Shown here: in pieces, positions 13,042 to 17,100 of the stretch
How the letters are laid out: each line of letters opens with the position of its first letter
How positions within the stretch are numbered: the stretch's first letter is position 1
Source of the DNA: an uncultured Planctomycetota bacterium
GTDB taxonomy: Bacteria > Planctomycetota > Planctomycetia > Isosphaerales > Isosphaeraceae
Reading direction: 5' to 3'
Assembly (NCBI GenBank): GCA_963737655.1
Contig: CAVTTN010000002.1
Span: forward strand, 3,648,001 to 3,712,000
Length of the DNA stretch: 64,000 nt
The notes under the pieces: generated by a model
The model's database searches: none
What the model saw: only the letters and a program-made list of their open reading frames with translations
What the model was told of the DNA's origin: nothing
Position numbers and translations under genes: made by a program

Positions 13042-13743
13042 ATGACCGCCGCCCTCCTGATCGCCGTCTCGCTCGCCCTGCCCGGCCAGAGGACCGATGG
13101 CCCCCCGCCCGATACTTACAAGCCCGACCCGGCCCTCAAAGCCCTGGACAAGAGCGGCGCCCTGTTCTTCGATCCCCGGGACCGCAGCCTCCTGATCCGG
13201 GCCCGGGTCTGCCTCCGCGAAGGCTACCTGGAGCACCTCCTCTGCGCCGAGAGGACGAAGGAACACGAATCGATCCTCGCCACCAAGGCCGACCCCCGGG
13301 CAGTCAAGGCGGGCCTGATCCTCACCGGGGCCGAGGAAGGCCACCCGGTCCGCTATCAGCCCAAGTTCGAGCCGCCGGCCGGCTCCTCGATCCTGATCCG
13401 CGTCGATTGGCTCGACGGCGACAAGACCCGGACCGCCAACGCCCGCGATTGGGTGAAGGACGGCAAGACCGGCAAGCCGATCGACAAGGATTGGGTCTTC
13501 GCCGGCAGCCAGCTCTTCCCCGACCCGGAGAGGCCCGGCAAGACGATCTTCGCGGCCGACGGCGGCGACCTCTTCACCGTCGCCAACTTCACCTCGGCGA
13601 TCCTCGACGTCCCGTTCGCCAGCACCGGCAACGACGCCGAACGCTCCTTCGTGGCCAATACCGACGCGATCCCGGCCAGGAACTCCTACGTCTCGCTCAT
13701 CCTCCGCCCCTCGAAGCCGGACGGAGCGAAGTCAAAGCCCTGA
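13042..13743 (+). CDS. Exported YdjY-like domain protein
   Basis: Short signal-like N-terminus. 'LEHLLC...KEHESIL' and 'WVFAGS' match my recollection of YdjY-domain proteins; not verified by a search. Confidence 0.55.
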   Translation: MTAALLIAVSLALPGQRTDGPPPDTYKPDPALKALDKSGALFFDPRDRSLLIRARVCLREGYLEHLLCAERTKEHESILATKADPRAVKAGLILTGAEEGHPVRYQPKFEPPAGSSILIRVDWLDGDKTRTANARDWVKDGKTGKPIDKDWVFAGSQLFPDPERPGKTIFAADGGDLFTVANFTSAILDVPFASTGNDAERSFVANTDAIPARNSYVSLILRPSKPDGAKSKP

Positions 13744-14254
13744 GCAGGACCTCCACCGAGGGCCGATCCGCCGGATCTTCGGAACGGTAAGCGAAGACGA
13801 GCCGGCGATCGGCGGCGATCACGAAATCGCCCCCAAGCTGGTGAACGTCCCCTCCCGATCGGCTCGGCCGGCGGCCCCGGAGGATCGCGCGGACGTATCG
13901 CCAGACCACGCGAGGGCGGAGGAGCCGCCCCCACCCCGCCGAACCGAGCCCGAACGCCGAATACGCGGCGAGCTGGGGGTCCGAGACCACCGGAAACGAC
14001 CAGCCCAACTGCTCCCGATAGCCCGGGAGCCGCTCCGGAGGCTCGAACGAGACGACGAGCACCCTCGCGCCCTGGGCAAGAATCGCCTCGTAACCGCCTT
14101 GCACCTCGCCGAGGTGCTCCTGGCAAGGCAGTCAAGCCAGGTGACGGAGGAAAATCAAGAGGAGCGGATGGCCTTCCTCCTCCGAAAGGCGGATCGGAGG
14201 GCCGTCGCCGCTCTCGAACTGGAAATCCGGGACGACCCGGCCGATCTCGATCAT
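13697..14254 (-). CDS. Selenocysteine-containing AhpC/TSA-like (thioredoxin-fold, SelL/PRXL2-related) redox protein, 185 aa, with an in-frame TGA at 14134-14132
   Basis: ORFs 14132..14401 and 13697..14104 share one frame. Reading through TGA gives LLLIFLRHLA-U-LPCQEH (UxxC) and later QLGGDFVI. ATG at 14254 has GGGAGA upstream. A SECIS-like hairpin follows the TGA. Confidence 0.85.
14094..14131 (-). promoter_or_regulatory. Putative bacterial SECIS element
   Basis: mRNA after UGA reads CUGCCUU-gccagga-GCACCUC-GGC-GAGGUGC-AAGGCGG: lower stem, bulge, 7-bp upper stem and a G-rich apical loop 21 nt after the UGA. Confidence 0.7.
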
Positions 14255-14394
14255 CGATCTTCTCCCGAGCGAGAACACATCCGCCACGAGCGTCCGAAAG
14301 GCCGTCATGCCCCGCCATGATATGGGCCCGGCGGCTGCCGACGGCGAGGAAAGTCCGCCACTTCCGAGCGATCCTGGCGTCGAATCGCTCAAAG

Positions 14395-14423
14395 TTGACA
14401 TTCCTCATCAGGATGGTTATGAT
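14395..14423 (+). promoter_or_regulatory. Sigma70-type promoter for cysH-sat
   Basis: TTGACA (14395-14400), 17-bp spacer, TATGAT (14418-14423). Confidence 0.7.
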
Positions 14424-14461
14424 TCGACGAACCTCAGAGGACCATGAGGCCGGGGGATGCG

Positions 14462-15187
14462 ATGACGACGATGGTGGAGGCCGTGCCCTCGATCGATCTC
14501 GAAGCGGCAAACCGACTTCTGGACGGAGGAACGCCCCAGGACGTTCTCCGCTGGGCCGTTCAGACCTATTATCCCAGCCTGACGATGGCCACGGCGTTCG
14601 GGCCCGAAGGCTGCGCGATCCTGCACATGCTCTCGGAGATCGAGCCGAGGGTCCGGGTCTTCAACCTCGACACGGGCTACCAGTTCGAGGAGACGCTGGC
14701 CCTCCGCGACCGGATCGCCGAGGAGTACGGGATCGAGGTCGAGCTCGTCCGGGCCGAACAGACGGTCGCGGAGTACGAGGCGGCCAACGGCGGAGCGGTC
14801 TATTCGCACGACCCGGACCGCTGCTGCCACGATCGCAAGATCGTCCCCCTCCGCCGGGCGATCGTGGGCTACGACGCCTGGATCTCCTCGATCCGGGCCG
14901 ACCAGTCGTCCCACCGAGCCCGGGCGGCCACGGTGGCCCTCGACGCCAAGTTCGGGCTGGTGAAGGTCAACCCGCTCCTCCGGTGGTCCCATCGCGACGT
15001 CTGGGCCTACGTCGTGCAGAACAAGGTGCCGTACAACCCGTTGCACGACCGCGGGTACCCCTCGATCGGCTGCTGGCCCTGCACCCGGGCCGTCTCGGCC
15101 GGCGAGACCGACGAACGGGCCGGCCGATGGGCCGGTCAGGCCAAGACCGAATGCGGGCTCCACTCGATGGACAGCAGCCAGTTGTGA
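14462..15187 (+). CDS. cysH: Adenylyl-sulfate/phosphoadenylyl-sulfate reductase (Fe-S APS-reductase type)
   Basis: 'TAFG', 'LDTGYQF', 'CCHDRK', 'GYPSIGCWPCT', 'RAGRW' and C-terminal 'ECGLH'. Confidence 0.92.
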   Translation: MTTMVEAVPSIDLEAANRLLDGGTPQDVLRWAVQTYYPSLTMATAFGPEGCAILHMLSEIEPRVRVFNLDTGYQFEETLALRDRIAEEYGIEVELVRAEQTVAEYEAANGGAVYSHDPDRCCHDRKIVPLRRAIVGYDAWISSIRADQSSHRARAATVALDAKFGLVKVNPLLRWSHRDVWAYVVQNKVPYNPLHDRGYPSIGCWPCTRAVSAGETDERAGRWAGQAKTECGLHSMDSSQL

Positions 15188-15327
15188 TCGGCCCGCCGCC
15201 GACGATGAGAGCGGGCGAGCGGGCGGCGATTCGTCTTGTCGGATCACGAGAGATCGGCGAAAAGACCTCTTGAGATCATGGATCGACGCCCCGGATCGGC
15301 GGCGATCGTCGTTGGTTGAATCCCCGA

Positions 15328-17100
15328 ATGTCCGTCCGACCCGAAAGGAGTCCTCCCATTTCCGCGACCACCCTCAAGACGCCGGGCCTGAACACTCCGT
15401 ATGGCGGGACGCTCGTTGACCTGATCGTGGACGAGGCCCGGGCCGCGGAAATGAAGGCCACCTCAAAAGACTTCGCCAGCGTGGTCCTCGATGAGCGGGC
15501 CCTGTGCGACCTCGAATTGCTCGCCACCGGCGCCTTCTCGCCCCTGACCGGGTTCCTCGGCAAGGCGGATTACGACCGGGTGGTCGCCGAGGCGAGGCTG
15601 GCCGACGGCACGCTCTGGCCCTTGCCGGTGGTCCTGCCCGTGAAGCCCGGCGACGGCGTGGCCGAGGGCAAGACCCTGGCCCTCCGCGACGTCTACGGCA
15701 ACTTGCTCGCGTTCCTCCACGTCGAGGAGCTGTATCAGCCCGACAAGGCCGCGGAGGCCCGAGGCGCCTACGGGACCGAGGATGCCAAGCATCCCGCCGT
15801 GGCCTACCTGAGCCGCTGCCCCGACCACTACGCCTCCGGCCGGTTGGAAGTGTTGCGGACCCCTCCGCACTACGACTTCGTCGAGATCCGCCGGACGCCC
15901 AGCGAGCTCCGAGAGCACTTCCAATCGCTCGGCTGGTCCAAGGTCGTGGCGTTCCAGACCCGGAACCCGCTGCACCGGGCCCACGAGGAGCTGACCAAGA
16001 GGGCGGCCGAGCAGATCGGCGGCGGGCTGCTGATCCACCCGGTCGTCGGCGTGACCAAGCCGGGCGACGTGGACCATTACACCCGGGTCCGCTGCTACCG
16101 GGCCCTGGTGGACAACTACTACGAGCCCGGTTCGGTCGTCCTGAGCCTCCTGCCCCTGGCCATGAGGATGGCCGGGCCTCGCGAGGTCCTCCTCCACGCG
16201 ATCATCCGCCGCAATTACGGCTGCACCCACTTCATCGTCGGCCGCGACCACGCCGGACCGGGCAACGACTCCTCGGGCAAGCCGTTCTACGCGCCGTATG
16301 CCGCCCAGGAAGCGATGGCCGAGCACAAGGCCGAGCTCGGCATGGAGATGGTGGACTTCAAGCAGATGGTCTACCTGCCCGACGAGGCCCGATACGCCCC
16401 CGTCGATGAGGTCCCGCCCGGGACCAGGACGGCCGACATCTCCGGCACCCAGGTCCGCGACAATTACCTGGCCAAGGGCCTTCCGCTGCCCGAATGGTTC
16501 AGCCGCCCGGCCGTGGCCGAGATCCTGAACGAGACCAGCCCGCCGAAGTTCCGCCAGGGGCTGACGATCTGGTTCACCGGCCTCTCGGGGTCGGGCAAGA
16601 GCACCGTCGCGCACGCCCTGGTCGAGCGCCTGGCCGAATACGGCCGGAACGTCTCGATGCTCGACGGCGACGAGATCCGCACCCACCTCTCCAAGGGACT
16701 CGGGTTCAGCAAGGAAGACCGCGACACGAACATCCACCGCGTCGGCTACGTCGCCGGACTGGTCGCCCAGCACGGAGGGACGACGATCTGCGCCGTGATC
16801 AGCCCGTATCGCGAGACCCGCGACCACGCGAGGAAGGCGTCGAAGGGGAACTTCGTGGAAGTCTTCTGCGATACCCCGATCGAGGAATGCGAGAAGAGGG
16901 ACGTCAAGGGCCTGTACGCCAAGGCCCGCGCCGGCGAGATCAAGGGGTTCACGGGCGTGGATGACCCCTACGAGGCCCCCCTGCATCCCGAGGTCACGAT
17001 CGACACGAGCAAGCTCTCGGTCCAGGGATGCGCCGACGCGATCGTGGAGAAACTCCTGGAGCTGGGCTTTATCCTGCCTCACGGCCACATCGCCGACTGA
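15328..17100 (+). CDS. sat: Bifunctional sulfate adenylyltransferase / adenylyl-sulfate kinase; start is ATG 15328 or ATT 15358
   Basis: Sat motifs 'FQTRNPLHRAH' and 'VGRDHAG'; APS kinase motifs 'WFTGLSGSGKST', 'LDGD' and 'FTGVDDPYE'. Confidence 0.93.
   Translation: MSVRPERSPPISATTLKTPGLNTPYGGTLVDLIVDEARAAEMKATSKDFASVVLDERALCDLELLATGAFSPLTGFLGKADYDRVVAEARLADGTLWPLPVVLPVKPGDGVAEGKTLALRDVYGNLLAFLHVEELYQPDKAAEARGAYGTEDAKHPAVAYLSRCPDHYASGRLEVLRTPPHYDFVEIRRTPSELREHFQSLGWSKVVAFQTRNPLHRAHEELTKRAAEQIGGGLLIHPVVGVTKPGDVDHYTRVRCYRALVDNYYEPGSVVLSLLPLAMRMAGPREVLLHAIIRRNYGCTHFIVGRDHAGPGNDSSGKPFYAPYAAQEAMAEHKAELGMEMVDFKQMVYLPDEARYAPVDEVPPGTRTADISGTQVRDNYLAKGLPLPEWFSRPAVAEILNETSPPKFRQGLTIWFTGLSGSGKSTVAHALVERLAEYGRNVSMLDGDEIRTHLSKGLGFSKEDRDTNIHRVGYVAGLVAQHGGTTICAVISPYRETRDHARKASKGNFVEVFCDTPIEECEKRDVKGLYAKARAGEIKGFTGVDDPYEAPLHPEVTIDTSKLSVQGCADAIVEKLLELGFILPHGHIAD

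Follow-up and report, generated by a model that had tools for sequence, protein, structure and literature searches.

Predicted recoding of an in-frame TGA as selenocysteine in a SelL-related redox protein gene of an uncultured Isosphaeraceae bacterium, and candidate selenocysteine-bearing ethylene receptor-like kinases in the same genome

Does the TGA that separates two minus-strand open reading frames of this planctomycete contig end a gene, or is it read as selenocysteine (Sec)? We analysed a window of 64,000 nucleotides (the whole stretch of DNA considered here) in which an ORF lister reports the two pieces as 14132-14401 and 13697-14104. The first-pass annotation had taken them as one gene split by the TGA, which proved correct. 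A single frame of 185 codons runs from 14254 to 13697 and its lone internal TGA is codon 41 (14134-14132), at the first position of the UxxC motif RHLA-U-LPC. The other breaks of the window had been read as indels, and a rough test agrees: a scan by codon score gave 48 in-frame stops, of which, by eye, only this TGA looked to lie within a sense-strand gene. The features of the region are as follows.

13697..14254, minus strand: SelL-related redox (seleno)protein gene, 185 aa, thioredoxin/AhpC-TSA fold, UxxC (NF040769, PF13911, PF00578, model and fold matches)
14132..14134, minus strand: in-frame TGA, codon 41, predicted selenocysteine (TGA/Cys column in homologs)
14123..14125, minus strand: Cys44, second residue of UxxC, likely the resolving thiol (translation; CxxC in homologs)
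14101..14117, minus strand: SECIS-like upper hairpin, 7 bp with a GGC loop, 21 nt after the UGA (pairing conservation; published SECIS model)
13042..13743, plus strand: YdjY-domain gene, convergent, overlapping the selenoprotein 3' end by 47 nt (NF040466 over cut-off; beside 5 orthologs)
14444..15187, plus strand: cysH, encoding a (P)APS reductase and divergent from the selenoprotein gene (above cut-off for PRK02090 and TIGR00434, below it for TIGR02055)
15316..17100, plus strand: fused sulfate adenylyltransferase/APS kinase, sat-cysC (PRK05537, 820.6 bits, cut-off 669)
14395..14423, plus strand: sigma-70-like promoter that faces cysH and not the selenoprotein gene (matches the consensus at 11 of 12 positions; shuffle mean 0.1)

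The read-through protein, its TGA column and its hairpin

The read-through protein scored 173.8 bits against NCBIfam NF040769 (SelL-related redox protein, curated cut-off 120), residues 8-173 covering profile positions 3-172 of 173, in line with the SelL/PRXL2-like AhpC/TSA assignment made earlier. Profile searches also gave matches to PF13911 and PF00578. The AlphaFold model (30 sequences, pLDDT 93.8) presents a strand at 31-35 and a helix at 42-53 with the UxxC at the helix start, as in the thioredoxin fold, and Foldseek returned BCP (BCP/PrxQ) and ResA structures with E values of 1e-9 to 1e-11. A canonical peroxiredoxin was rejected: the PxxxT/SxxC(U) motif is absent, with Ile 7 places and His 3 places before U41, and the profile PRK09437 gave 21 bits for a cut-off of 140. 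Because this motif is missing, the protein is filed as a thioredoxin-fold oxidoreductase and not as a peroxiredoxin.

The family cut-off was passed in 13 of 121 genomes of the same taxonomic family. The best 16 other loci of this family carry TGA (9 loci) or Cys (7 loci) at the codon-41 column, and in the genome collection, where 26 of 27 loci cover the column, TGA was found in 19 and Cys in 7. The TGA thus occupies the first Cys position of the family motif, as had been stated, and every aligned homolog has either TGA or Cys there. The nearest named records among the 27 loci are Isosphaeraceae and Planctomycetia MAGs. Among 120 database proteins listed, 20 are at least 165 aa long, 18 of them with CxxC; the other 100 are short and without the motif, as would be expected if gene callers stop at the UGA. 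A Cys-form close ortholog (L040 / L074, 59% identity) retains the hairpin and the cysH neighbour, possibly after a recent Sec-to-Cys change.

Downstream of the TGA, positions 14117-14111 pair with 14107-14101 in a 7-bp stem closed by a GGC loop (14110-14108) that starts 21 nt past the TGA. The 50 nt following the codon are predicted to fold in two parts at −22.7 kcal/mol (z −2.1), 7 of 200 shuffled sequences being equally good, so that the two-part stem-loop of the first-pass annotation does exist as a fold. Its two parts fared differently: across 13 TGA orthologs, 96.7% of the upper-stem cells are paired (slid controls, 26-50%), whereas the lower stem, with 47.7%, was rejected as a conserved element. 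The closing pair of the upper stem is G-C in 7 of these orthologs and C-G in 5, a compensatory change; all such counts are inflated by the relatedness of the orthologs. In the source genome, none of the 2213 gene-ending TGAs is followed by a like hairpin at that spacing, and among 10078 TGC codons 3 are. Synonymous recodings of the same peptide yield an equal stem in 6.5% of cases, and the upper stem is therefore partly dictated by the peptide. The loop is GGC in the window gene, while the other 12 orthologs have G-U in theirs; a second subgroup of homologs has an AGUU loop 25 nt from the TGA. The bacterial SECIS model, as given in the part of PMC13188914 used here, asks for a loop of 3-9 nt with G in the first two places, a stem of 4-16 bp, a distance of 16-37 nt from the UGA and at most −7.5 kcal/mol. 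It permits a G-G loop, and the window hairpin agrees with it in stem (7 bp), loop (GGC), distance (21 nt) and energy (−22.7 kcal/mol for the 50-nt fold).

The family score above cut-off, the alternation of TGA with Cys, the conserved hairpin and the presence of selA, selB and selD strongly support the recoding of this UGA as Sec, as well as the SelL/PRXL2-like assignment. The idea that this organism reads UGA as Sec, put forward from the window alone, is well supported by these data. We are highly confident that the gene gives rise to a selenoprotein of 185 residues that belongs to the known SelL-related family and is probably a cytoplasmic thiol-disulfide or antioxidant oxidoreductase, its activity being predicted. 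It is very likely a novel planctomycete representative of an already catalogued selenoprotein family; the annotation of the locus is corrected and a planctomycete member is added to that family. On established bacterial Sec biology, SelB would bind the hairpin loop and deliver Sec-tRNA to the UGA. Sec41, which heads the active-site helix, would attack a disulfide or a peroxide, the substrate class suggested by the modelled fold, Cys44 would resolve the intermediate into a selenenylsulfide, and a cellular reductant would recycle it.

The divergent sulfate-activation genes

The gene is divergent from cysH (14444) and sat-cysC (15316), and it does share an intergenic region with them, as first described. 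From this arrangement a common regulation with sulfate activation had been proposed. (P)APS reductases require a thioredoxin-type donor. The selenoprotein could in principle be a dedicated partner of sulfate assimilation, either as electron donor of CysH or as a gene co-regulated with cysH-sat for S/Se flux. In the taxonomic family the divergent arrangement recurs opposite cysH in 4 loci and opposite rrf2-sat in a fifth, in which cysH is not adjacent. Three other close TGA-form homologs (L063, L065, L068) adjoin sulfatase genes. Among the 27 wider loci, cysH, rrf2 or sat lies within 5 kb in 4, of which 2 repeat genomes of the family loci and 2 have a more distant sat. Against such a partnership, the other 23 loci are without these neighbours, some of their contigs being short; the loci that keep the link are related and not independent; and neighbouring ORFs of the homologs are varied (37 of 89 scanned). 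The sole sigma-70-like site of the spacer faces cysH only, a TTGAC/TAGAC-like core aligns in the orthologous spacers, and no other operator-like motif was apparent, by eye, in 9 aligned spacers. Moreover, the unrelated ydjY is kept beside 5 orthologs, about as often as the cysH/sat link, so that plain synteny explains as much.

Co-regulation with cysH-sat is consequently not supported, the single promoter-like site facing away, the link being confined to close relatives and ydjY being retained to a similar extent, and we regard a dedicated role in sulfate assimilation as unlikely. The place of the selenoprotein gene opposite cysH-sat is best read as the inherited gene order of one planctomycete clade. 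Elsewhere in the source genome (G000), rrf2, which belongs to the cysH-sat cluster of relatives, is found at G000:C2:3463064 (plus strand; L088), 7.5 kb from a second AhpC/TSA-like selenoprotein candidate.

Selenocysteine machinery of the source genome

A search of the genome for selA, selB, selC and selD had been suggested, and three of the four were found. SelA, SelB and SelD exceed their profile cut-offs; selA is intact, SelB occupies one intact frame, and selD carries its own in-frame TGA with an 8-bp GUC-loop hairpin. No gene for tRNA-Sec (selC) turned up in the assembly, which is 87.7% complete, whether with Rfam, with ARAGORN, with two scans for the anticodon loop or with blastn/nhmmer and the tRNA-Sec of 10 relatives as queries; this is the strongest objection to the Sec reading. 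In one congener (G002) selC stands behind a gene whose ortholog in the source genome is not followed by a tRNA. The best Rfam tRNA-Sec match (49.5 bits) is the tRNA-Leu(TAA) of ARAGORN, and the 3025 calls made by ARAGORN at a relaxed threshold, some labelled SeC and none backed by Rfam or nhmmer, were taken as noise. Sec machinery has already been published for Isosphaera pallida and Gemmata, according to the part of PMC4807772 consulted.

The failure of five approaches to find selC, together with the departure of the window loop from G-U, would fit a relic system in which selC was recently lost and all UGA-containing genes are now truncated. However, the incomplete assembly also lacks the clpC ortholog, which is found in 19 of 20 relatives and in 2 of the 3 congeners is a neighbour of selC, at a distance of ~0.7 kb. 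tRNA-Lys(UUU) and tRNA-Ser(CGA) are likewise not found, only one CAT tRNA is listed, and contig C2 terminates next to an integrase-like gene. The joint absence of selC, clpC and the two tRNAs and this contig end point to a missing segment. Besides, selA and selB are intact and selC is present in 3 of 3 congeners. The absence of selC is thus likely an assembly gap, and a relic has only a slight chance of being the right explanation. In a relative, an integrase-like ORF abuts tRNA-Sec (L018:52-1479), which suggests that selC is an integration site in this taxonomic family. Of the nine family genomes with the TGA form, seven have selB and seven tRNA-Sec, and both are present in all 4 with a completeness of 90% or more. 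Among the seven with the Cys form selB was found in 4, and a 99%-complete genome without selB and tRNA-Sec has the Cys form.

The assembly does have frameshifts and some in-frame TGAs without a hairpin, which might speak for a sequencing error or for a Cys codon turned into a stop by mutation. This explanation is hardly credible, since the same TGA occurs in 9 other family genomes and in 19 of 26 wider homologs, with the hairpin conserved. A genome-wide UGA=Trp code was rejected, as TGA is the usual true stop and ends 2213 of the 2928 training genes. Two in-frame TGAs in coding-like sequence without a hairpin, at G000:C2:262145 (plus) and 3001927 (minus), are likely errors or pseudogenes.

Other candidates, ethylene receptor-like kinases and known systems

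Besides SelD, a genome scan for coding-like TGAs with the hairpin type of the window gene brought up two further genes, one AhpC/TSA-like (the second of its kind) and one AhpD/CMD-like with CxxU, together with a TGA at G000:C2:7519197 on the minus strand. Its codon-score threshold missed the window gene and a SelW-like gene, so the list is a lower bound. SelW-like, second AhpC/TSA-like and AhpD/CMD-like genes make three further candidates of known type, with similar hairpins. The loci outside the window are listed below.

G000:C2:7519254-7518091 (L090:6095-7255, L149), minus strand: ETR1_N histidine kinase gene with an in-frame TGA (7519197) at an invariant Cys (hairpin; PF25487, PF00512)
L122-L146, L148, L150 and L151: homologs of this kinase gene
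G000:C2:3221679 and 3221374 (L003), minus strand: SelW/Rdx-like CxxU gene directly upstream of the TGA-containing selD, both with hairpins
G000:C2:3455494 (L088:5306-5839), plus strand: second AhpC/TSA-like UxxC selenoprotein candidate, with the 7-bp hairpin and 21-nt spacing of the window gene
G000:C2:629163 (L091), minus strand: AhpD/CMD-like CxxU candidate (family assigned by eye), with an AGUU-loop hairpin at 25 nt

The second AhpC/TSA-like candidate is 26% identical to the window protein and is widespread in the taxonomic family; it was also seen at L042-L044, L046, L047, L049, L050, L052 and L053.

The TGA at 7519197 belongs to a histidine kinase gene that lies upstream of response-regulator genes and has a frameshift in its ATPase part. 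The product scores 124.9 bits against ETR1_N (PF25487, cut-off 27) and exceeds the HisKA cut-off (PF00512). The TGA column is Cys in all 29 aligned homologs from the taxonomic family, and no internal TGA was present among the good matches listed from 57 other family genomes, so that the Sec form of the source genome stands alone in its family. A DNA-pattern search of 401 genomes of the phylum gave 5 matches: the source genome, 3 homologs and 1 chance match, which was dropped. The 3 other phylum genomes with a TGA-form kinase all hold tRNA-Sec and selB. In metagenomes, the pattern search was made without requiring a hairpin and gave 25 loci; 19 are ETR1_N homologs with an in-frame TGA, and the 6 dropped are neither ETR1_N homologs nor followed by a hairpin. 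In all 19 a stem of 6-7 bp carries a G-U loop 20-21 nt from the TGA, two pairs of loci being identical over the hairpin region.

Over 21 distinct copies, pairing in the kinase hairpin reaches 95.9% of cells; 13 copies close it with A-U, 3 with G-C and 2 with C-G. The Leu codon CTA, 0.6% of the Leu codons of the source genome, occurs in the stem in 12 of 20 counted Sec copies versus 1 of 23 Cys copies. On a tree of 49 ETR1_N domains (20 with Sec), 4 label changes are needed, and the data do not reject one Sec clade (p-AU 0.26). The structural model shows three long helices, with the predicted Sec, residue 20, in a loop ahead of the first; a fold search with the ETR1_N model among solved structures gave nothing at E 0.001. 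The N-terminal side of an ethylene receptor-like kinase faces outward. Plant ethylene receptors dimerise through N-terminal cysteines. Four residues, D35, C75, H79 and K98, are the same in all 12 aligned ETR1_N copies. Key residues of AzoEtr1 carry the same numbers (PMC11819568, consulted in part); the two sets appear equivalent by residue number, AzoEtr1 itself lying outside the alignment. C75 and H79 are candidate copper ligands, to judge from the sequence.

Literature searches, at the level of titles and with most subscription papers outside their scope, found no Sec histidine kinase or ethylene receptor, nor was a Sec form of the receptor found in the portions consulted of the literature on AzoEtr1 and SynEtr1. 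Table 1 of the 2026 review PMC13188914 has 119 prokaryotic selenoprotein families, nearly all redox enzymes, carriers and transporters, with no histidine kinase; the parts of the review covered, that table included, contain no kinase family and no mention of sensor or ethylene. The main text and part of one supplement of PMC13326102 (BSepDB) contain no sensor or kinase family. Five TGA-form kinases matched no NCBIfam selenoprotein model, the statement being limited, for three of them, to the best 25 families.

These data make it probable that the ETR1_N membrane histidine kinases of Planctomycetota include an uncatalogued class of selenoproteins, in which Sec replaces an invariant Cys before the first membrane helix and the Cys and His of the putative copper site are kept. 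On that reading the Sec would have its role in signal input and not in an enzyme active site, serving as a switch (redox or metal) or forming an inter-subunit diselenide. If this is true, two-component signalling would be coupled directly to selenium supply or redox state through a receptor kinase that carries Sec, and the natural Cys and Sec forms offer a ready test of the role of the N-terminal Cys in bacterial ethylene receptors.

Compared with known systems, the window protein is closest to the NF040769 SelL-related redox proteins (AhpC/TSA_2, PF13911), with which it shares a full-length match, the RHxx(C/U)xxC motif and the Sec/Cys alternation, and from which it differs in nothing material. 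Among its best fold matches is human PGFS (9usa; TM 0.73, rmsd 2.4, 17% identity). Fish SelL is a UxxU protein with a diselenide. The likeness to eukaryotic PRXL2/PGFS and to fish SelL is one of fold, the window protein being UxxC whereas SelL is UxxU. An Acidobacteriota record (L084, TGA at 225) holds a homolog with two in-frame TGAs and hence UxxU, like eukaryotic SelL. The Prx-like thiol:disulfide oxidoreductases (PF00578, UxxC/UxxU) and peroxiredoxin-like AhpC/TSA selenoproteins in Table 1 of PMC13188914 share the Pfam clan, the UxxC motif and the in-CDS SECIS. The parts of the review consulted give these Prx-like UxxC families without naming NF040769, and their likeness to the window protein is at clan level. 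As for the kinase of the source genome, it shares ETR1_N (PF25487) with the bacterial ethylene receptors AzoEtr1 and SynEtr1 and differs from them in that residue 20, which precedes the first membrane helix, is predicted to be Sec.
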